The translations under genes and the position numbers were made by a program. 39,389 nt of DNA, taken from contig CAZCOZ010000001.1 in assembly GCA_964500555.1 (NCBI GenBank), forward strand, positions 13,708 to 53,096, given 5' to 3'. Source of the DNA: an uncultured Thiotrichaceae bacterium (GTDB lineage Bacteria; Pseudomonadota; Gammaproteobacteria; SZUA-229). Shown piece after piece: positions 7,204-36,446 of this stretch; position 1 is the stretch's first letter; each line of letters starts with the position of its first letter. The notes under the pieces were generated by a model. The model searched no databases. It was not told the origin of the DNA and saw nothing but the letters and a program-made list of their open reading frames with translations.

Positions 7204-8604
7204 TTATACTGGTATAGCAACACCCGCATCTCTCATTTTTGCTAATTTATAACGTAAGGTCCTTGAACTGATCCCCAATCTTTCTGCCACTTCTTTTCGA
7301 CTGTTTTTTGCTTTTAATGCAGAAAGAATCAAATCTTGTTCACGTGCTTTTAAATCACCACTCAAATCCGGCTCTATTTCATCCAGCTCTATCTCATCAG
7401 ATTCTGTTTCCTCTGTTTTGGTTAACGCATCTGAAATCGACTGAAAAATGAATACTTCATTTTCAAGATGAATATCACTTGCTTCAATAACATTTCCTGT
7501 TTTTAGAATGAGCGCCCGCTGTATCACATTATCGAGTTCACGAACATTACCTGGCCACAGGTGTTTGATTAAACGTCTTTTTGCCGTTGCTGAAAAATAC
7601 ACAGCACTTTGAGATATAGCGTTACCAGTAGACGAATAGTGACTTAAAATTTTATTTGCTAACGGTAAAATATCATCAGAGCGATCACGTAAAGATGAAA
7701 TATGCAGTGGAAAAACATTAAGTCGATAGAATAAATCTTCACGAAACTTACCATCAGAAACAGCCTGATAAATGTTTCGGTTTGTTGTCGCCAAGATTCT
7801 TACATCAAGAGAAATAACTTTACGACCACCCAATCTCTCAACTTCACGTTCCTGCAGAACACGTAATAGCTTTGCCTGCAGAGCTAAATCCATTTCTGTT
7901 ATTTCATCAAGCAATAAGGTTCCACCCTGTGCCTGTTCAAACTTACCTACTTTTAATTGATAAGCACCTGTAAACGCGCCTTTCTCATAACCAAAAAGTT
8001 CTGATTCCAGCATATTCTCTGGTATTGCCGCACAGTTGATGGCGACAAAAGGACCTTTTGATCGATTTGAATGTTGGTGAATAAAACGCGAAACCACTTC
8101 CTTACCAACACCCGATTCACCACTAATCATGACGCTGGCATCTGTTAATGCGACTCGTTTTGAAACTTCAGCTAGTTGAATACTTTTATCATCAACCGCA
8201 ATAAAATCATCTGTTTTATCTTTTTCTGCAGATATAACTCGCGGTAATAAATCAGCAAGCATTTCAATAAGTAATTCTGCTTTAATGGGTTTTGTTAGAT
8301 AATCGGAGGCACCATTACGTATCGCCCGCACTGCATTTTCAATGCAACCATCTCCCGTCATTAGAACAAAAGGAATGTCTGGGTATTTTAATTTACAATT
8401 TTTTAATAATTCATGTCCATCCATTGGTGCTATGTTCAAATCACTTAATATCAGGGCTATTTCATTGTTTTCTTTTAGTTGTGAGAGAGCCTGCTCACCG
8501 TTTTCTGCAGTAACCACAGAATATTTTTCTAAATGTAACGCATCAGTTAAAACATCACACCAGGATAGATCATCATCAACAACTAAAATTGTTAACCGGT
8601 TCAT
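7204..8604 (-). CDS. Sigma-54-dependent (NtrC-family) response regulator, FleR/FlrC-like flagellar activator
   Basis: The receiver domain has all canonical residues (D10-D12, D55 in LILSDLNIAPMDG, T83, K105). The AAA+ domain has Walker A GESGVGKE, the sigma-54 contact loop EKGAFTGA and Walker B LLLDEI. C-terminal Fis-type HTH is EVAERLGISSRTLRYKL. No histidine kinase gene is adjacent. Confidence 0.9.
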   Translation of the reverse strand: MNRLTILVVDDDLSWCDVLTDALHLEKYSVVTAENGEQALSQLKENNEIALILSDLNIAPMDGHELLKNCKLKYPDIPFVLMTGDGCIENAVRAIRNGASDYLTKPIKAELLIEMLADLLPRVISAEKDKTDDFIAVDDKSIQLAEVSKRVALTDASVMISGESGVGKEVVSRFIHQHSNRSKGPFVAINCAAIPENMLESELFGYEKGAFTGAYQLKVGKFEQAQGGTLLLDEITEMDLALQAKLLRVLQEREVERLGGRKVISLDVRILATTNRNIYQAVSDGKFREDLFYRLNVFPLHISSLRDRSDDILPLANKILSHYSSTGNAISQSAVYFSATAKRRLIKHLWPGNVRELDNVIQRALILKTGNVIEASDIHLENEVFIFQSISDALTKTEETESDEIELDEIEPDLSGDLKAREQDLILSALKAKNSRKEVAERLGISSRTLRYKLAKMRDAGVAIPV

Positions 8605-9095: not shown

Positions 9096-9626
9096 ATGTC
9101 CTTATACGCAATTGATAAACTGATTAATGAAACGCGTCGGCTTGCTGCCGAATTCAAACGCACAACGGGCACAATGCTGCCTGTTTCAGGTGAAATTGCG
9201 CGCTATGACGTTTCACATCATCTTGATTTAACCTTATGTAACGATCCTGGCTGTGGTTATGATGCAATTGATAATAATCCGATTGACAATAATCGAAGAG
9301 AAGGACTACGCGTACAAATCAAAAGTAGAGTGATTGGCAACGCGGTAAAATCCGGCCACCGGCTTGGGCAACTAAATCTCAACGGTAGCTGGGACATCGT
9401 CATTCTATCTTTGATGGATAACGAATTTGAACCCGTTGAAATGTATCAGCTAAGCCGTAATGAGATTATAAACTCACTAAAAGATAATAATAAAAATACC
9501 AGCCTTTCCGTTGCCAAATTTAAAATGATAGGTGAACTTGTCTGGAGCAAGGAGCGTGGTATTAAAAACCTGGATCATTACCAAACAATCGAAAGAAAAA
9601 TTACTGATTCCTGTACCCATCACTGA
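9096..9626 (+). CDS. Hypothetical protein with a possible PD-(D/E)xK-like nuclease core
   Basis: 176-aa ORF. The spacing of GYDAID ... LRVQIKSRVI resembles a D...(E/Q)xK restriction-endonuclease-fold motif. The layout (SGEIARYDV.. / ..QIKSR.. / ..LNLNGSWDIVILSLMDNEFEPVEMYQL) recalls a widespread small uncharacterised family that I cannot verify without a search. Confidence 0.5.
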   Translation: MSLYAIDKLINETRRLAAEFKRTTGTMLPVSGEIARYDVSHHLDLTLCNDPGCGYDAIDNNPIDNNRREGLRVQIKSRVIGNAVKSGHRLGQLNLNGSWDIVILSLMDNEFEPVEMYQLSRNEIINSLKDNNKNTSLSVAKFKMIGELVWSKERGIKNLDHYQTIERKITDSCTHH

Positions 9627-9745: not shown

Positions 9746-10522
9746 GTGACCAAACAGGCTCATTTACTTTTTCAGAAAAAATATAAGGAAGAACTTATCC
9801 AGGTCTGGCAAAACAACCATCACCGCTGGTTAAGTATCGACAATATCGAACAGTCTCGACTAAACATCAAAAATCCTGAGGAACTTGCATCGCCCCTTGA
9901 TTATTATTTTTTAGCGTGCCTGCTTTTTATTAATATTCCAAAAAATGTGCTCCTTGGCGGTTTAGGTGGCGGCACACTTGCACACTACCTGCATAATAAA
10001 CAACCTGAAATAAATGGACATGCTATCGAAATCAATCCATTGATTGCAAAGTTAGCAAAAGATTATTTCTACTTCCCTCAAAATAAATGGGATATAGACA
10101 TCAGTGATATTGAGCACATCAATATTAAAAGCATTAAACATCACTATGATTTAATGTTGATTGATATTGGTGATAAGGATTCAACACCCGAATGGCTCAC
10201 TAGCGAAAAGATGTTGTTAGAATTTAAACAACAATTATCTGAACATGGCGTATTGGTGATAAATTTGTTAGTAAACAACGCCGATTCCTTTAGTCAAAAA
10301 TTAACAGCAATACGAAAGATATTTAATCGTAAAACAATTTGCGCAAGTATTCCCAGGCATAATAATATTGTGGTTTATGCCTTTAATAAGCAACCGTTAT
10401 ATAGTTCTTCAGATCAATTACAATCTCGGCTTGAAAAATTGTCACAAAGTTGGGGATTAGATTATTCAGTCTTGCTAGAACAGATTCAGCAGGAGAACCC
10501 TAAGGGAAGTGGGGTATTTTAA
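9746..10522 (+). CDS. Spermidine-synthase-fold / class I SAM-dependent methyltransferase-like protein (GTG start)
   Basis: 258 aa. Glycine-rich motif I VLLGGLGGGTLAHYL is followed by an acidic post-I residue (AIEINP) and DLMLIDIGD, the pattern of spermidine synthase-like proteins. GTG is the first start codon after an in-frame TAA at 9728. Confidence 0.65.
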   Translation: MTKQAHLLFQKKYKEELIQVWQNNHHRWLSIDNIEQSRLNIKNPEELASPLDYYFLACLLFINIPKNVLLGGLGGGTLAHYLHNKQPEINGHAIEINPLIAKLAKDYFYFPQNKWDIDISDIEHINIKSIKHHYDLMLIDIGDKDSTPEWLTSEKMLLEFKQQLSEHGVLVINLLVNNADSFSQKLTAIRKIFNRKTICASIPRHNNIVVYAFNKQPLYSSSDQLQSRLEKLSQSWGLDYSVLLEQIQQENPKGSGVF

Positions 10523-13679: not shown

Positions 13680-14837
13680 TTAACGTAATAAACTCAAAAC
13701 ATTTTGAGGGATCTGATTAGCCTGAGCTAACATTGCAGTACCCGCCTGTTGCAAGATTTGGTTACGTGTTAAGTTCGCTGTTTCCGCAGCAAAGTCAGCA
13801 TCACGAATTCGACCACGTGCAGCACTGGTATTCTCTGCATTAATCGACAGGTTAGTTACCACACTTTCAAAACGTGTTTGTATCGCACCTAAATCTGCAC
13901 GAGCTGTATTAACCGCCGTTATTGCTGAATCCATAAATAGAATCGCAGTATTTGCACCACCGGCACTACTAATATCCAATGTATCAAAACCAACTGTATC
14001 CGCTGCGGTTGCAGTTAGAGCATTTAAACCAGTGGTTACAGCTGTTGCAGCACCACCGATCGTTGCAGTGATATCATGTGATGACGTTAGTGTAATTTGA
14101 TCCGTTGTGCCTTCAGTAATAGTCGCAAAAACACCGGTCTGATCCGAAATATTATTAATTGCTGCTAATACACTTGAAGCCGCACCATCAGCGTCAGCAC
14201 CTGTAACGAAACCAGCAACATCAATTGCAACACCCGCTTCATTCTCAATCGTAATATCACCAGCAGCGATAGTCGCATCAAATCCAGTTGCTGCAGCTTG
14301 AGTAGCAGTTGCAATACTTGTTATGCCTAATGAATCAGACTTCGCATTCACAATACTATTTATTGCAATCGTCTCACCATTGTTAGCACCCACCTGGAAT
14401 GTTTTGTTAGTAAACGAGCCATCAAGCAATTTAACGCCATTGAAATTGGTTTGTGTTGCTACACGATTAATTTCACTTTTCAGTTGTTGCGCCTCAGCAT
14501 TTAGTGCTGCACGATCCGAAACACTGTTTGTTGCATTGGCAGACTGTACCGCAAGCTCACGAATACGTTGTAGTGAATTACTCACACTATCTAGTGAACC
14601 CTCAGCGGTTTGTGCTAGTGAAACACCGTCATTGGCATTACGCATCGCAACGTTCATACCACGAATTTGAGTTGTCATTCTTTCAGAAATCGCAAGACCC
14701 GCTGCATCGTCTTTCGCACTGTTAATACGTAGACCAGATGATAAACGTTGCAATGAAGTCGCCAAATCCATTGATGATGAAGTTAAGTTACGTTGCGCAT
14801 TAAGAGATGCAACGTTTGTGTTAATGGTTAAAGCCAT
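13680..14837 (-). CDS. fliC: Flagellin
   Basis: 385 aa. Conserved N-terminus MALTINTNVASLNAQRNL..LSSGLRINSAKDDAAGLAISERM and C-terminus ..AAETANLTRNQILQQAGTAMLAQANQIPQNVLSLLR. The central domain is T/S/A/G-rich. RBS is GGAGA. Confidence 0.97.
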   Translation of the reverse strand: MALTINTNVASLNAQRNLTSSSMDLATSLQRLSSGLRINSAKDDAAGLAISERMTTQIRGMNVAMRNANDGVSLAQTAEGSLDSVSNSLQRIRELAVQSANATNSVSDRAALNAEAQQLKSEINRVATQTNFNGVKLLDGSFTNKTFQVGANNGETIAINSIVNAKSDSLGITSIATATQAAATGFDATIAAGDITIENEAGVAIDVAGFVTGADADGAASSVLAAINNISDQTGVFATITEGTTDQITLTSSHDITATIGGAATAVTTGLNALTATAADTVGFDTLDISSAGGANTAILFMDSAITAVNTARADLGAIQTRFESVVTNLSINAENTSAARGRIRDADFAAETANLTRNQILQQAGTAMLAQANQIPQNVLSLLR

Positions 14838-14900: not shown

Positions 14901-14927
14901 TTAACGACCGTACTGCAGAAAACTTTA
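14901..14927 (-). promoter_or_regulatory. Sigma-28 (FliA) promoter of fliC
   Basis: The minus strand reads TAAAGTTT-N11-GTCGTTAA, against the consensus TAAAGTTT-N11-GCCGATAA. The -35 is exact and the -10 matches 6/8. It lies about 65-90 nt upstream of the fliC ATG. Confidence 0.8.
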
Positions 14928-14977
14928 ACTGTATTTAACATCTTTGCTACTTAACTTTCTCTTTAATTTGTTTTGCT

Positions 14978-15020
14978 TATAAATTGTATTATAAATTGTA
15001 TTATAAATTGTGTTATAAAC
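14978..15020. repeat. 12-bp tandem repeat (about 3.6 copies) upstream of the fliC promoter
   Basis: TATAAATTGTAT, TATAAATTGTAT, TATAAATTGTGT, TATAAAC. Lies between the sulfotransferase stop (15065) and the fliC -35 (14927). Confidence 0.9.
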
Positions 15021-15064: not shown

Positions 15065-16705
15065 TTACTGAATGTTTTTTCTACCACCTGTAATACCCCT
15101 GTTTTCAGATATCTCAAATGCTTGCTTCAGTGTTTTTTTCAGCGTTTTCTTCAATGGCTGCAAGTATTTTTCATAGTAACCCCAATGCTCCATTGATGAG
15201 TGATGCTGCTCATTTTCAACTATCAGTCGACTCTCAGCAGACTTACTTTTGAAATCAGTACAACCTGACTGCCAATCAAGACCAATAAATTTAATTATTT
15301 CTTTACTGCTTATTGTCGTCTGGTTTGATATATCATCATATTCGACTGTATGAATATCTATTGGCAATACTTTTTTCCAATGTTCCATTAATCGTTCATA
15401 TTGCTGGTAATACAAACCAATGTCTTTTAAGTCACAGGCATAACCATGGTCGCCAGCAAAATCATGGAAGAAACAGGACAGTGAGACATCAAGCGGATTA
15501 CGACGACAATGTATAATATGTGCATTAGGAAATAACAATGCGATCAAACCAAGATAGATAAAGTTTGTTGGCATTTTATCGGTAATACGCTGTGGTCGAG
15601 TATGTGTATTATTCAGTGCTAAATTATTTATATCGTTCAAATAATAGCGCGCAAATCCAGCCAATGTTTCCGCCGAGTTATATTCAAAACTCATATACCG
15701 ATTATCTGTCTGTTCCATTGTCAGCTTTAATTTATTGGCAATGTTATTAATTAAATTCAGTTCGCCAGCTGCATAAATATCGGTATGATTATGCAACATT
15801 TGCTCAACCAATGTTGTTCCTGAACGTGGCATACCAATAATAAACACAGGCTGTTGTGATGGACATAATTCAAAATCATTAAATTTATGAAACAATTCCG
15901 GCGTAAAGGTATTGATCACTTTACTTATATATTCCACATGTTTTTCAGAATCGAAGTCCACTACCTTAGACATATTTGCCACTGCATAATTAGCAAAAGC
16001 CTCATCATATCGTTCTGATGCATCGTACATTGCACCTAGCGCAAAATAGAAACTACGGCGATCATCAAGTGGTAAATTTTTCTTTTTGAGCAAAGCCTCT
16101 ACCCTGTCGATATCTTCTTCCGTAATAGCTTCTCTATCTAATTGCACCAGCCCGTGAAAATTTCTTGCATCAGATGGATTAATCCTAAAAGCAAGATGAT
16201 AATGTGTAAGTGCCAGACTAATATCACCTGTTTGCAAATACAGCCTGGCAAGTTCACCATGAACATCGCCATTCATCGCATCTTGTTGTAATATTTCAGT
16301 GTATTTTTCTATCGCAGCAGTAAACTCAGCCATTCGCGAATAAACTAACGCTAAATTATTATTTAAGCTACTATTTTTAGGGGATTGCTCAAGCGCGAAG
16401 TTAAATAACTCCATTGCCAGTGATAACATTCCCGCATCCATCGCGATCATGCCGAGGCCATTCAGCGCAGATATATTATCTGGCTGTAGTTGTATGACCT
16501 GTTGATATAGACAATTTGCCTGGCGTAACTGTTTTGACTCATGATAGTTTCTAGCTTCAAGGATCAAACTAGAAATTTCATCATCACTTTCAACACTCTG
16601 ATGTACCGCTACGCTTTTTTTTCTTATTTCTTTATGCTGTTTGTTCTTCATGTGTTTTTTCATAGATATTATTTTTAAGGTTGCTTCCTGTAAAACTGTT
16701 TTCAA
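15065..16705 (-). CDS. TPR-repeat protein fused to a PAPS-dependent sulfotransferase domain
   Basis: The N-terminal ~250 aa are TPR-like repeats. The C-terminal half has the 5'-PSB loop FIIGMPRSGTTLVEQML (PRSGTT at aa 293-298) and a 3'-PB-like HCRRNPLDVSLS. The ORF-track start at 16705 is a TTG 3 nt after the flgL stop. Alternative ATG starts are at 16663 and 16651. Confidence 0.85.
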   Translation of the reverse strand: MKTVLQEATLKIISMKKHMKNKQHKEIRKKSVAVHQSVESDDEISSLILEARNYHESKQLRQANCLYQQVIQLQPDNISALNGLGMIAMDAGMLSLAMELFNFALEQSPKNSSLNNNLALVYSRMAEFTAAIEKYTEILQQDAMNGDVHGELARLYLQTGDISLALTHYHLAFRINPSDARNFHGLVQLDREAITEEDIDRVEALLKKKNLPLDDRRSFYFALGAMYDASERYDEAFANYAVANMSKVVDFDSEKHVEYISKVINTFTPELFHKFNDFELCPSQQPVFIIGMPRSGTTLVEQMLHNHTDIYAAGELNLINNIANKLKLTMEQTDNRYMSFEYNSAETLAGFARYYLNDINNLALNNTHTRPQRITDKMPTNFIYLGLIALLFPNAHIIHCRRNPLDVSLSCFFHDFAGDHGYACDLKDIGLYYQQYERLMEHWKKVLPIDIHTVEYDDISNQTTISSKEIIKFIGLDWQSGCTDFKSKSAESRLIVENEQHHSSMEHWGYYEKYLQPLKKTLKKTLKQAFEISENRGITGGRKNIQ

Positions 16706-16708
16706 TAA

Positions 16709-17611
16709 TTACAGATAATTAAATAATGATAAGCCTTGAATTTTCACAAATGTTTGCTGAGAAGCCTGTAATGCAAGCAATTGTTGCTCAAAATGGCTAA
16801 CCGCTTCTGCATAATCTAAGTCTTTCAGATTAGAACGGTTTTCCTGTAGTAAAACTGAAAAACTTTCATTAGCATTTTTCTGATTTTCAATTGTATTCAG
16901 CCGCGCACCAATCGATGCACGTGTATTTAATATATTATCGATAGCCGAATCTAAACGTGTCAGTGTTGTTCCCGACGGTGTATTCGCATCAAGGTCTGTC
17001 GAAAAATCATATAACATAGAGAACATATTATCGATACCACCGGCTCCATCATCCACTTTCATAAAGACTTCAACACCAGAATCCCCTACTGTTACATTTC
17101 TTCTTGCACCAATCTGTAAACTTCGTTGCCCCTGATCACCGGCATAAGTAAAATTACCCAGACCATCATCATTAAAAGGCTTTGTATCTGTTTGAAAGCC
17201 AGAAAATAAATATTCACCCAATGCATCTCTACTGTTCGCCAGTTGAATGAGAGAATCAATATTTGCTCGCACTTCAAACGCTATCGAGCGTCTATCACTC
17301 GCACTAAGTGAATCATTATTTGCCTGAACAGATAGCTCTCTCGAACGTTGTAGTAATTCGCCAATATCTGTCAATACGGTCTCTTCAAGTGCCAGTCGTG
17401 TCTCAGCAAAATCTGCATTACGTTGGTACTGTGCCGTTGTATCAATAATTTTATTGAGATTGAGCACACGTGTGGCAGCATCAGGGTCATCACTTGGTGA
17501 CAATAATCTTTCGCCCGTTGCTAACTGCTGTTGTGTTTTCGCAAGTTCCGATTGCTTTGACAGCATAGTGGTAACTGCCTGTTGAAATATTTGTGATGTA
17601 GAAATCCGCAT
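16709..17611 (-). CDS. flgL: Flagellar hook-filament junction protein FlgL (HAP3)
   Basis: 300 aa. Flagellin-like N-terminus MRISTSQIFQQAVTTMLSKQSELAKTQQQLATGERLLSPSDDPDAATRVL and C-terminus ..DLDYAEAVSHFEQQLLALQASQQTFVKIQGLSLFNYL. Follows flgK. Confidence 0.92.
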   Translation of the reverse strand: MRISTSQIFQQAVTTMLSKQSELAKTQQQLATGERLLSPSDDPDAATRVLNLNKIIDTTAQYQRNADFAETRLALEETVLTDIGELLQRSRELSVQANNDSLSASDRRSIAFEVRANIDSLIQLANSRDALGEYLFSGFQTDTKPFNDDGLGNFTYAGDQGQRSLQIGARRNVTVGDSGVEVFMKVDDGAGGIDNMFSMLYDFSTDLDANTPSGTTLTRLDSAIDNILNTRASIGARLNTIENQKNANESFSVLLQENRSNLKDLDYAEAVSHFEQQLLALQASQQTFVKIQGLSLFNYL

Positions 17612-19631: not shown

Positions 19632-20132
19632 CTATTCCTGCCTGCCAGCTACTGTATTCAAATCAAATTGAATAACGGCACTTGAACGATTAATTTGATT
19701 ACGTATTAATTCAAGGTTATTGATTGCATGATTTGTATTAGTCTGCTGCTCAATAATATGTTGTTCAATAACAGGTTGCTCAATGCCCATATCTTTTTCC
19801 AACATCGCGGCAATACCTAAGCCACCACCCGTTTTATTACTGGCAAGATCCAGTGCTATTTGTTTATCAAACATTTCCTGATAAAAACGCGTTTGGTCGG
19901 ATTCAGCGGAATCACCTGCTATCGTGGCATCTCGCATGGATTTGAGCATCATTTGCAAAAACAGGGATTCAAACTGCTTTGCAACTTCCTTATTTGCTGC
20001 ACGTGATTCCGCTATCGATTCAGCTGTATTTTCATGATTAGAAACTTTACTACGAAGTTTTTGTAGCCCACTAAAATCGGTGTAAAGGCTGGCATCTGAA
20101 ATCTGGCTGATACTATTATTTACGCTATTCAT
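19632..20132 (-). CDS. flgJ: FlgJ, rod-binding domain only (no muramidase domain)
   Basis: 166 aa. It has the rod-binding motif AKQFESLFLQMMLKSMRDA...FYQEMFDKQIALDLA. The ORF ends 5 nt before the flgK start, so there is no space for a C-terminal glucosaminidase domain. Confidence 0.85.
   Translation of the reverse strand: MNSVNNSISQISDASLYTDFSGLQKLRSKVSNHENTAESIAESRAANKEVAKQFESLFLQMMLKSMRDATIAGDSAESDQTRFYQEMFDKQIALDLASNKTGGGLGIAAMLEKDMGIEQPVIEQHIIEQQTNTNHAINNLELIRNQINRSSAVIQFDLNTVAGRQE
19672..19698 (-). promoter_or_regulatory. Weak candidate sigma-28 promoter for flgK-flgL inside the 3' end of flgJ
   Basis: The minus strand reads TCAAATTA-N11-GCCGTTAT (5/8 and 6/8 to consensus). Internal class-3 flgK promoters are known in enterics, but this match is modest. 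Confidence 0.3.
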
Positions 20133-26242: not shown

Positions 26243-26653
26243 CTATTCGCCTTTCAACGCGGCCATCATGCCTTTAAATTTACCGCCCAGAAAAGTAAGG
26301 CTAGCCTGATAATGCAAAGCATTTTCTGCGAATGAACTTTTTTCAATTTGTCCATCAACCGTATTACCATCCAGCGATGGTTGAAGAGGGACACGATAAA
26401 GTACGTCAGCAGTATTCACTGCAGTGTTAATTTGTATATGTTTTGAATGCGTGCGAGTGAGTGAGCTAGCAAATTTTGCATCGTTAGATTGTGCATTTAC
26501 ACTTGCCAAAGCAGATTTAAAATCAATATCTCTTGCCTTATATCCAGGGGTATCCGCGTTTGCGATATTCGACGCAAGGACTTCTGCGCGTTGCGACCTT
26601 AACGCTAATGCTTGCTGGTGGATTCCAAGAGCGGAATCAAATGTTATCGACAT
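26243..26653 (-). CDS. flgB: Flagellar proximal rod protein FlgB
   Basis: ALRSQRAEVLASNIANADTPGYKARD ... ENALHYQASLTFLGGKFKGMMAAL. The ORF-track start at 26665 is a TTG. The ATG at 26653 is preceded by GGAG at 6-nt spacing and fits the sigma-54 promoter at 26691..26706. Confidence 0.95.
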   Translation of the reverse strand: MSITFDSALGIHQQALALRSQRAEVLASNIANADTPGYKARDIDFKSALASVNAQSNDAKFASSLTRTHSKHIQINTAVNTADVLYRVPLQPSLDGNTVDGQIEKSSFAENALHYQASLTFLGGKFKGMMAALKGE

Positions 26654-26690
26654 ATTGCACTCCAACTTTAATTATTCTTGCGAACTAAAA

Positions 26691-28159: not shown

Positions 28160-28186
28160 TTAACGGCAGTAAGACCAAAATCTTTA
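28160..28186 (-). promoter_or_regulatory. Sigma-28 (FliA) promoter of flgM-flgN
   Basis: The minus strand reads TAAAGATT-N11-GCCGTTAA (7/8 in each box), in the flgA-flgM spacer. This is the classical position of the class-3 flgMN promoter. Confidence 0.8.
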
Positions 28187-35609: not shown

Positions 35610-36134
35610 TTAGCTTTTACGACGACGCTGCATAGCTACAAGACCAAGCAAACCTGAAACAAACAACCACGCACTCGCTGGAAGCGGTACAACCGTTGTG
35701 CCTGTATAAAACCGGCCTTTAGAACCGCCACTTACAAATTGTATATCGTCAGCAAAACGAATAAAATCAACACCAGCTTCAGCAATAATGTCACCCGGAT
35801 TGTCAAAAATAGTGAAATCCAGCGATGTAAGAGTACCGGTAGCAGCATTAGTATCAAAACTCAGCACAGGAGCAGCACCGTCACTAATGCCAAAAGTCTC
35901 ACCAAATAGTTCAAACTTCGTGGCACCATGCCATGTACTCACTGTTCCGCTAACTGCGTCATAATCATCTGAATCAAACGCCAAAATAGCTTTACCTATC
36001 TCGCCATCAAACGCGCCACCGTCAATGGTAGTGTTTATTGTGTGGATGACCAAAGCAGCCTGGCTCACTGTACTTGCAAGCAAGAGTGCTGAAGCAAGGA
36101 TAACTGTTTCTATCGATTTTTTTATTTTCATCAT
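35610..36134 (-). CDS. Secreted protein with a C-terminal VPLPA-CTERM (PEP-CTERM-class, exosortase-type) sorting signal
   Basis: Signal peptide MMKIKKSIETVILASALLLASTVSQA. The C-terminus VVPLPASAWLFVSGLLGLVAMQRRRKS gives the motif, a TM helix and a basic tail. The ATG at 36134 is preceded by AAGGAA at 8 nt. The ORF-track start is 36167. Confidence 0.75.
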   Translation of the reverse strand: MMKIKKSIETVILASALLLASTVSQAALVIHTINTTIDGGAFDGEIGKAILAFDSDDYDAVSGTVSTWHGATKFELFGETFGISDGAAPVLSFDTNAATGTLTSLDFTIFDNPGDIIAEAGVDFIRFADDIQFVSGGSKGRFYTGTTVVPLPASAWLFVSGLLGLVAMQRRRKS

Positions 36135-36446
36135 TTTGCTATTCCTTATCGTGTGAATTTTAAACATTTATATTGATTTTAGTTCCAACAATGCACTATC
36201 TATACCAAGTTTATATCTATCTGTATTTATTAGCTTTTTTTAAACCGACTTTCAAACCCATTAAGCAAGTGTAAAACATTCCAACTTTTAACCCTGCCCA
36301 CAATCAAATTTCAGGTAGAGTTGATAAATAATACATAAAATCAGGTAACAACAGCATTAAGTTATTGATTTTTTAAATAATAGAAAAAAATTAATTCACC
36401 TAAACGTAAACTTTTACGACACCTGGCACTATTCCAGTAAAAAGCG

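Follow-up and report, generated by a model that had tools for sequence, protein, structure and literature searches.

The DNA analysed here, a stretch of 39,389 nucleotides from an uncultured Thiotrichaceae bacterium (the window), carries between the flagellar genes flgL and fliC a gene for a protein in which an N-terminal tetratricopeptide repeat (TPR) domain is joined to a C-terminal sulfotransferase domain of the type that uses 3'-phosphoadenosine-5'-phosphosulfate (PAPS). The layout is like that of the TPR-guided flagellin-modifying transferases FlmG and Maf-1, but the protein is not a member of that group, since its fold is not that of a glycosyltransferase. By analogy with these systems we propose, tentatively, that it is a TPR-guided modifier of the FlmG/Maf-1 kind which actively sulfates flagellin or the glycan on it; the sulfotransfer activity, the binding of flagellin, the acceptor and a second role discussed below are what we infer from the sequences compared here. 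A TPR-guided sulfotransferase had already been suggested in a sequence-only reading of this DNA. That idea gained from the architecture, the linkage, the residues and the selection described below, but it did not stand as an account by catalysis alone, since degenerate relatives keep the same slot.

The open frame at 15065-16705 encodes 546 amino acids (aa) when counted from the TTG at 16705, as the sequence-only reading had it, and all four peptides quoted there are found in the translation; to this we can add that the gene lies on the minus strand. The first ATG (16663) gives a protein of 532 aa and the second (16651) one of 528 aa. Since homologs are 510-550 aa long and their alignments begin at one or the other of these ATGs, the true product probably has 532 or 528 aa, the second ATG being the start that matches most homologs. 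The features of the gene and its product are given below with the evidence in brackets, where dN/dS is the ratio of non-synonymous to synonymous substitution rates and AF2 the AlphaFold model of the protein.

15065..16663, minus strand: TPR-sulfotransferase coding sequence, 532 aa from the first ATG (list of open reading frames, Pfam, homolog lengths and alignment, dN/dS)
15884..16597, minus strand: N-terminal helical-repeat (TPR) domain, aa 23-260 (Pfam TPR models, AF2 helices, Foldseek, dN/dS)
15134..15880, minus strand: C-terminal PAPS-type sulfotransferase fold, aa 262-510 (PF13469, PDB profile, Foldseek, dN/dS)
15812..15835, minus strand: 5'-phosphosulfate-binding loop GMPRSGTT with Arg280, equivalent to TPST1 Arg79 and TPST2 Arg78 (sequence, TPST1 alignment)
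15761..15763, minus strand: Glu301 in AAGEL, equivalent to the catalytic TPST1 Glu100 and TPST2 Glu99 (alignment)
15575..15577, minus strand: Lys363 in TDKMP, matching the Lys in the NKDP segment of TPST1 (alignments)
15476..15511, minus strand: 3'-phosphate-binding motif HCRRNPLDVSLS, with Arg388 and Ser396 eight residues apart (sequence; intact in 48 of 75 clade clusters)
15161..15250, minus strand: eroded C-terminal family motif, which reads SAESRLIVENEQHHSSMEHW (motif table and census, AF2 confidence, dN/dS)

Domain architecture and active site

The division into a TPR half and a PAPS-binding half, first made from the letters alone, was borne out by Pfam. Sulfotransfer_3 (PF13469) matched with E=3.8e-41 (142 bits, the cutoff being 27) over model positions 1-215 of 216 and aa 286-479 of the 546-aa form, Sulfotransfer_1 matched with E=8.5e-14, and a dozen TPR models matched across aa ~50-190 with E values from 2e-14 to 1e-7. 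These scores are far beyond chance and the two-domain layout is real. In NCBIfam no model reached its cutoff for this protein; the sole sulfotransferase-related match there, to NoeE, was weak and confined to the phosphosulfate loop, and the TPR region resembled, below threshold, SycD/LcrH-class chaperones of type III secretion (E=1.1e-7).

The AF2 model was built from a 25-sequence alignment and has a mean predicted local distance difference test score (pLDDT) of 82.7. It consists of a helical-repeat half followed, from residue 272, by an alpha/beta half. Residues 22-261 form fourteen helices with pLDDT above 90, comprising about four canonical TPR pairs together with TPR-like pairs and a linker, and Foldseek matched this domain to TPR stretches in OGT, in SPY and in designed CTPR proteins. 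The first strand of the alpha/beta half runs into the loop GMPRSGTT and then into a helix: the phosphosulfate loop FIIGMPRSGTTLVEQ follows strand E272-277 and enters helix H283-291, a strand-loop-helix arrangement with its Arg in place. In the same manner the 3'-phosphate motif IIHCRRNPLDVSLS comprises strand E382-387 and then helix H390-399, carrying the spaced Arg and Ser. Confidence falls below 50 at residues 472-489, the region of the eroded C-terminal motif, and at residues 515-532.

Having neither a signal peptide nor a membrane segment, the protein is cytoplasmic, in the compartment where PAPS is made and where known systems modify flagellin. A secreted or membrane enzyme was excluded on these grounds, the sole and most hydrophobic stretch being the core strand of the fold ahead of the 3'-phosphate motif. 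At the other end of the protein, aa 1-22 (16598-16663, minus strand) form a strongly basic tail, MKKHMKNKQHKEIRKKS, of low model confidence and predicted to be disordered, whose basic character is kept across the clade (consensus MKxxNKKxxRK).

The profile search of the PDB with the full-length protein and the Foldseek search with the full model were swamped by TPR proteins, and the PDB search was repeated with the sulfotransferase domain alone. As a single sequence, this domain found TPST1 as its best match (E=0.0015); as a 16-sequence profile, it matched TPST1 (1e-14), the tick TPST (1e-12) and TPST2 (3e-10), followed by the CurM sulfotransferase (1e-9) and cytosolic SULT1A enzymes (3e-7 to 2e-5). 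The best sulfotransferase folds in Foldseek were TPST2 (3ap3_B) and the tick TPST (8w5z), with ~19% identity in the structural alignment. By sequence comparison, then, the protein tyrosine sulfotransferases (TPSTs) come nearest among enzymes of solved structure, as distant homologs; the protein itself is not a TPST, because the single-sequence E value is only 0.0015 and there is no anchor or signal peptide.

The essential Arg, Glu and Lys of the TPSTs and the 3'-phosphate motif are present in the window protein, with Arg280, Glu301 and Lys363 aligned to TPST2 Arg78, Glu99 and Lys158; here the Lys of the TPST1 segment NKDP was taken as the catalytic Lys159 (TPST2 Lys158), on an assumed numbering. 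The catalytic residues of TPST1 are R79, E100, K159 and S286 (PMC5562738), and alanine mutants of the Arg, the Glu and the Lys have strongly reduced activity in both the tick TPST and human TPST2 (PMC10951654). The likeness to TPST1, TPST2 and the tick enzyme extends to the Arg of the PRSGTT loop, to both catalytic residues Glu and Lys and to the Arg and Ser that bind the 3'-phosphate; canonical family members may in addition have a counterpart of the Ser286 segment. The substrates of the TPSTs are proteins. The TPSTs differ in having a membrane anchor and residing in the Golgi lumen, whereas the window protein is cytoplasmic and is fused to a TPR domain; identity is limited to the value given above, the flagellin in the window has no Tyr, and the C-terminal motif of the window protein is eroded. 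A bacterial sulfotransferase with a protein or peptide target, likened here by description only, is the PAPS-dependent tyrosine sulfotransferase RaxST of Xanthomonas oryzae (PMC4646787, PMC4892823). RaxST is not known to have a TPR domain or a flagellar role.

For the analogy with TPR-guided transferases, which the sequence-only reading had drawn from FlmG, published experiments exist. In FlmG, flagellin binding requires the N-terminal TPR half and nothing more, glycosylation requires this half too, and the catalytic half does not work by itself (PMC7591256); the TPR domain of Maf-1 from Shewanella oneidensis binds flagellin and sets acceptor specificity (bioRxiv 10.1101/2023.12.03.569772). 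FlmG, the flagellin O-glycosyltransferase of Caulobacter crescentus (596 aa), is similar to the window protein in having a TPR domain followed by a transferase, in size, in its cytoplasmic location and in its flagellar association. The two are likened by description only, FlmG being a GT-B glycosyltransferase where the window protein has a PAPS-type sulfotransferase fold, and the window has no nonulosonic-acid pathway genes near the gene. Maf-1 likewise unites a transferase and a TPR domain in one polypeptide, but its TPR domain is C-terminal and the group transferred is pseudaminic acid.

The flgL-fliC position and its conservation

The window contains a complete flagellar cluster on one strand, in the order flgN, flgM, flgA, flgB to flgL, the TPR-sulfotransferase gene, fliC, fliD, flaG, fliS and fliT, followed by a sigma-54 response regulator (7204-8604) and by fliE to fliJ; genes for cyclic-di-GMP and efflux functions are found on its far side. 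The Pfam scan covered the open reading frames of at least 100 aa outside flgB-flgI, 23 of the 44 listed, plus the TPR-sulfotransferase gene, and identified FlgL, FlgK, FliC, FliD, FlaG, FliS and FliT as its near neighbours, while flgB-flgI were identified through tblastn matches in related loci. The features directly on either side of the gene are:

16709..17611, minus strand: flgL, hook-associated protein 3, 300 aa, directly upstream of the TPR-sulfotransferase gene (Pfam Flagellin_N/C)
13680..14837, minus strand: fliC, flagellin, 385 aa, the candidate client or substrate (Pfam; composition)
14901..14927 (14927-14901), minus strand: sigma-28-like fliC promoter, TAAAGTTT-N11-GTCGTTAA, 2 mismatches (pattern search)

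The distances reported earlier were reproduced: the flgL stop codon (16709-16711) is separated from the TTG by 3 nt and from the first ATG by 45 nt, and the sigma-28-like site, previously placed about 140 nt beyond the gene, lies 137 nt past its stop and 64 nt ahead of the fliC ATG. No terminator-like site was found on the minus strand between flgL, the TPR-sulfotransferase gene and fliC, and promoter-like sites in the same interval were not more frequent than in shuffled sequence. These scans agree with the earlier statement that neither a promoter nor a terminator fits into the flgL junction, and gave no support to an own promoter or terminator between the two genes. Because the genes are closely spaced and terminator-like sites are lacking, the TPR-sulfotransferase gene is probably co-transcribed with flgL. 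The spacer between its stop codon and the sigma-28-like fliC promoter has 3.6 copies, matching at 96%, of a 12-bp repeat (14977-15019; plus strand TTATAAATTGTA, gene strand ACAATTTATAAT), possibly an array of binding sites for a regulator or an AT-rich upstream element.

In known systems the slot between flgL and fliC holds flagellin modifiers, namely the glycosylation island of Pseudomonas aeruginosa and maf-5 of Aeromonas. The position in the window is that of the Pseudomonas-type island, beside flagellin and next to flgL (the island of strain PAK is mentioned in PMC3542563), but here it is occupied by a single gene and the scanned open reading frames include no sugar-synthesis or glycosyltransferase genes.

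The linkage to flgL and fliC, whose lack in related genomes the sequence-only reading would have counted against its idea, is strictly kept within one clade. Each of the 12 clade homologs whose contigs were inspected (43-90% identity) had the flgL-X-fliC arrangement, where X is the TPR-sulfotransferase gene, as flgK-flgL-X-flagellin(s) in ten loci and as flgL-X-flagellin in two shorter contigs (L118 and L119), and a genome scan recovered the identical flgL-X-fliC arrangement in a gammaproteobacterial genome at 42% identity (L003). The gaps in relatives range from 17 to 83 nt towards flgL and from 140 to 520 nt towards fliC. Around this fixed slot there is variation in the flagellins, present either as a single long copy (357-386 aa) or as two to three short ones (274-282 aa), as well as in the relative order of flaG and fliD and in what follows fliT.

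The wider family of TPR-sulfotransferases is large (3629 matches at E<=1e-10). From it, an alignment-based genome scan gave a sample, among the matches listed, of at least 78 loci at 28-37% identity, in which flagellar linkage was controlled by tblastn with 26 flagellar proteins of the window within 10 kb of each locus. Flagellar genes were near only one of these 78 loci and 77 were without them; the hosts include Mesorhizobium, Planctomycetes, Desulfobacterales and Woeseiaceae, among others. A metagenome scan with the single protein returned distant relatives (28-38% identity), mostly on short contigs. Members of the wider "TPR repeat-containing sulfotransferase" family share with the window protein the domain order and the motifs GMPRSGTT, DKMP, HCxRxPxD and TASxxQVRxPxY; they differ from it in their 28-37% identity, in being often longer (600-950 aa) and in being nearly never flagellar. 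The flagellar clade is a distinct sub-lineage of this family, marked by frequent active-site loss.

The sole flagellar locus of the wider family belongs to the alphaproteobacterium Ferruginivarius sediminum (L063). It encodes a 751-aa TPR-sulfotransferase with fully canonical motifs which, together with an S-adenosylmethionine (SAM) methyltransferase, lies between flgK-flgL-fliW and flagellin-fliD on the opposite strand. TPR-sulfotransferases have thus reached the flagellin-modification slot at least twice. The methyltransferase gene stands behind the sulfotransferase gene (12113-13729 of L063, plus strand) and encodes 538 aa with a MethyTransf_Reg domain, an association that suggests a two-enzyme modification module beside flagellin.

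These comparisons bear on the idea that the target has nothing to do with flagellar proteins, being perhaps a sugar of the lipopolysaccharide or the capsule, or else a small molecule, and that the gene merely shares a transcript with them. The fold has other jobs elsewhere, given the size of the wider family and the 77 of 78 non-flagellar loci among the matches listed, and the G+C content of the gene (0.35-0.38) is below that of flgK and fliC (0.41-0.45). Nevertheless, the gene keeps its place between flgL and fliC without exception in at least 13 loci, the most distant at 42% identity, amid variable surroundings, an independent flagellar case exists in the Alphaproteobacteria, and the G+C content matches that of the accessory genes flaG and fliS, so that we regard an unrelated target as very unlikely. 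A recent horizontal insertion was also considered and found no support, the G+C content being that of neighbouring accessory genes and the position being kept across deep divergence.

Selection, active-site loss and possible acceptors

To describe the constraint on the window gene, dN/dS was obtained against close relatives at synonymous divergences (dS) of 0.4-0.7 and against L001 at a dS of ~1.4, which is near saturation. The values were:

Whole TPR-sulfotransferase gene: 0.09-0.10
TPR domain: 0.04-0.065, under tighter constraint than the rest of the gene
Sulfotransferase domain: 0.07-0.10
Last 60 residues (aa 471-532): 0.21-0.28
FlgL: 0.05-0.08
FliD: 0.09-0.12
FliS: 0.06-0.15
FliC: 0.17-0.23

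Both domains thus experience strong purifying selection. The TPR-sulfotransferase gene is under constraint like that on core flagellar genes such as flgL, and its active-site residues are maintained. The window copy is probably catalytically active, to judge from its residues.

Several results weigh against an active flagellin modifier. When the key residues were scored in 75 clade clusters, 48 retained the Arg, the Glu, the Lys and the 3'-phosphate Arg and Ser, while the remaining 27 had lost the loop Arg (replaced by Gln, Cys, Asn, His, Tyr, Asp or Glu), many of them together with the Glu or the Lys (GSS, ADD) or with the 3'-phosphate Arg (HCVANPLD). The three degenerate forms whose loci were checked (P0025, P0033 and P0048) all lie between flgL and fliC. 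Among the genomes with intact or degenerate versions are GCA_002746365.1, GCA_015488295.1 and GCA_942492025.1. In the wider family, the loop Arg is kept in 77 of the 78 loci among the matches listed, and since the scan pattern left that position free, this retention is not a selection artefact. The sub-lineage of the window protein, moreover, has lost most of the C-terminal family motif, and the AF2 model is disordered and dN/dS raised there. Pfam scans of the window open reading frames outside flgB-flgI revealed no glycosyltransferase, nonulosonic-acid or sulfate-activation (PAPS-synthesis) genes, as the sequence-only reading had said, and no glycosylation genes were seen in the window locus or in 12 related loci. 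Finally, we know of no enzyme for Ser/Thr O-sulfation in any organism.

The flagellar clade is thus unusually tolerant of the loss of the loop Arg. In a neighbour-joining tree the degenerate forms fall in at least two or three separate lineages, and when pairs with equally diverged TPR domains are compared, degenerate ones have 8-10 identity points less in the sulfotransferase domain than intact ones. Because 27 of the 75 clusters lack the essential Arg and those checked are still in the slot, the clade-wide role that holds the gene there cannot be sulfotransfer alone, and the TPR half is the constant part.

The sub-lineage of the window copy comprises 17 clusters, which retain the five core residues throughout but show a stepwise decay of the C-terminal motif. 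Against the family consensus NTASxxQVRxPxYxSSxxRW, the window protein retains Ser478 and has replaced Arg by Glu483 and Arg by His493. The sequence of TPST1 around its Ser286 is ERS(286)TDQVIKPVNVGALSKW, and canonical family members can be placed against this segment without gaps, with S, QV, P and [RK]W at identical spacing. The score of the local alignment was attained by 21 and by 82 of 500 shuffles, which is non-significant when taken alone, and a short-peptide PDB search with the motif returned chance matches only. It is plausible, in the register we propose, that the C-terminal family motif corresponds to the TPST segment bearing the catalytic Ser286.

These patterns could also be explained by a mainly non-catalytic flagellar factor (an escort, an assembly factor or a regulator), whose TPR domain would bind flagellin or some other late substrate jointly with a sulfotransferase-fold domain preserved in structure, sulfotransfer being a fading ancestral relic and the flagellin of this organism being unsulfated. 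The recurrent loss of the Arg in separate lineages that stay in the flgL-fliC slot, set beside its loss in just one of the 78 loci listed outside the flagellar clade, agrees with such a role, as do the relaxation of the sulfotransferase domain in degenerate pairs under a TPR domain that stays constrained, the low dN/dS of the TPR half, the eroded C-terminal motif in the window sub-lineage and the sub-threshold likeness of the TPR region to SycD/LcrH chaperones. Listeria GmaR, an enzyme-plus-TPR protein that doubles as an anti-repressor, is comparable. We nonetheless consider this explanation somewhat unlikely for the window protein, which, with 47 other clusters, strictly keeps the five core residues down to ~40% identity; the dN/dS of its sulfotransferase domain is as low as that of FlgL, which would be hard to explain with an irrelevant active site, and the chaperones FlgN, FliS and FliT are all encoded in the window, with no chaperone vacancy evident.

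As for the acceptor, the FliC of the window contains no Tyr, Cys or Trp and 20.8% Ser plus Thr. Tyrosine sulfation of this flagellin in the style of RaxST, a comparison made in the sequence-only reading, is therefore ruled out. The long flagellins of related loci have 0-2 Tyr, and the short flagellins beside fully canonical enzymes have Tyr at the conserved positions 49, 171 and 224. Across the loci, short flagellins in 2-3 copies with these three Tyr pair with fully canonical motifs (L108, L112, L114 and L003) and long single flagellins with eroded or dead ones (the window, L001, L002, L110 and L115-L119), P0030/L117 being an exception; this pattern may be only phylogenetic. Possible acceptors are flagellin Ser/Thr hydroxyls, a glycan attached by the products of genes at other loci, or a late export substrate other than flagellin.

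An active enzyme could instead sulfate Tyr in FlgK, FlgL or FliD, as TPSTs and RaxST do in their substrates. The closest solved relatives are tyrosine sulfotransferases, the gene comes directly after flgK-flgL with no terminator-like site in between, FlgK, FlgL and FliD have 12, 6 and 5 Tyr where FliC has none, and the Tyr residues of the short flagellins by canonical orthologs can be cited in the same sense. The homology to TPSTs is remote, however (E=0.0015, ~19% identity), and the acceptor type is not inferable from it; by our reasoning, a dedicated enzyme is less expected for hook-associated proteins, of which there are few copies per flagellum, and the slot is one that houses flagellin modifiers in known systems. 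A hook-associated target is in our view improbable.

According to the preferred reading as a TPR-guided modifier, the gene would encode a soluble cytoplasmic flagellar accessory protein, co-transcribed with flgK and flgL and produced just ahead of flagellin. Its N-terminal TPR domain (aa ~23-260) would dock a late flagellar export substrate, for which flagellin is the best candidate by analogy, and the C-terminal TPST-like domain would move sulfate from PAPS onto the docked client prior to export. As there is no tyrosine in the local flagellin, the sulfate would go to a Ser/Thr hydroxyl or to a sugar that flagellin already bears. Because relatives with wrecked active sites hold the same position, the protein probably has an additional, catalysis-independent role in binding, escorting or regulating flagellin. 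A bolder version, in which direct Ser/Thr sulfate esters are formed on the Tyr-free flagellin before export by what would be the first bacterial flagellin sulfotransferase, while sister lineages become dead flagellin-binding factors, strikes us as rather doubtful; if true, Ser/Thr O-sulfation would for the first time have an enzyme assigned to it, in any organism.

Other features of the window and meaning of the finding

Elsewhere in the window, two opposite-strand open reading frames (9096-9626 and 9746-10522, both on the plus strand) lie between fliT and the sigma-54 regulator; neither these nor the frame at 35610-36167 had a Pfam match. The first is 72% identical to the gene at the same position in L002, which carries DUF6998, and several related loci likewise have a frame of 157-169 aa (DUF6998 or unannotated) behind fliT; the second, of 258 aa, is also found in L001, L118 and L119. 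After fliI there are two consecutive FliJ-like frames (891-1328 and 1394-1849, both on the minus strand), the proximal one with a weak match to FliJ (E=4.9e-4) and the distal one with a strong match (E=2.7e-19). A perfect sigma-28-type site, TAAAG-N14-GCCGATAA, occurs at 488-514 on the plus strand with no open reading frame of at least 100 aa behind it, and others occur on the minus strand at 28160-28186 and 26644-26670, a site with 1 mismatch just upstream of flgM and another overlapping the flgB start. The FlgJ of the window (19632-20132, minus strand; 166 aa) consists of the rod-binding domain only, without the glucosaminidase domain, and the ortholog in L112/L113 (L112 2091-2996; 301 aa) has both.

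Bacterial flagellin is known to be modified by glycosylation, by methylation of lysine and by phosphorylation. In agreement with the sequence-only reading, which knew of no characterised bacterial flagellin sulfotransferase, full-text literature searches found no study of such an enzyme or of sulfated bacterial flagellin, and the only motility-filament sulfotransferases found were those acting on the N-glycan of Halobacterium glycoproteins. TPR-sulfotransferase genes near flagellar clusters have been seen before but not studied, since a preprint on the Campylobacter motor, in a screen of TPR proteins within five genes of flagellar clusters, listed the sulfotransferase among the TPR-associated catalytic domains that were filtered out (PMC11870540). 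What would be new here, if the analogy with FlmG and Maf-1 holds, is a sulfotransferase fold and chemistry within the layout of a TPR-guided flagellin modifier.

If the filament is sulfated, it would carry a fixed negative charge. In marine sulfur-cycling Gammaproteobacteria this could affect how filaments pack, how phages and immune systems recognise them and how they adhere to minerals or hosts. The clade itself is a natural experiment on the change from enzyme to pseudoenzyme, in which the catalytic and non-catalytic roles would be separable by genetics because intact and degenerate versions share the same operon position.

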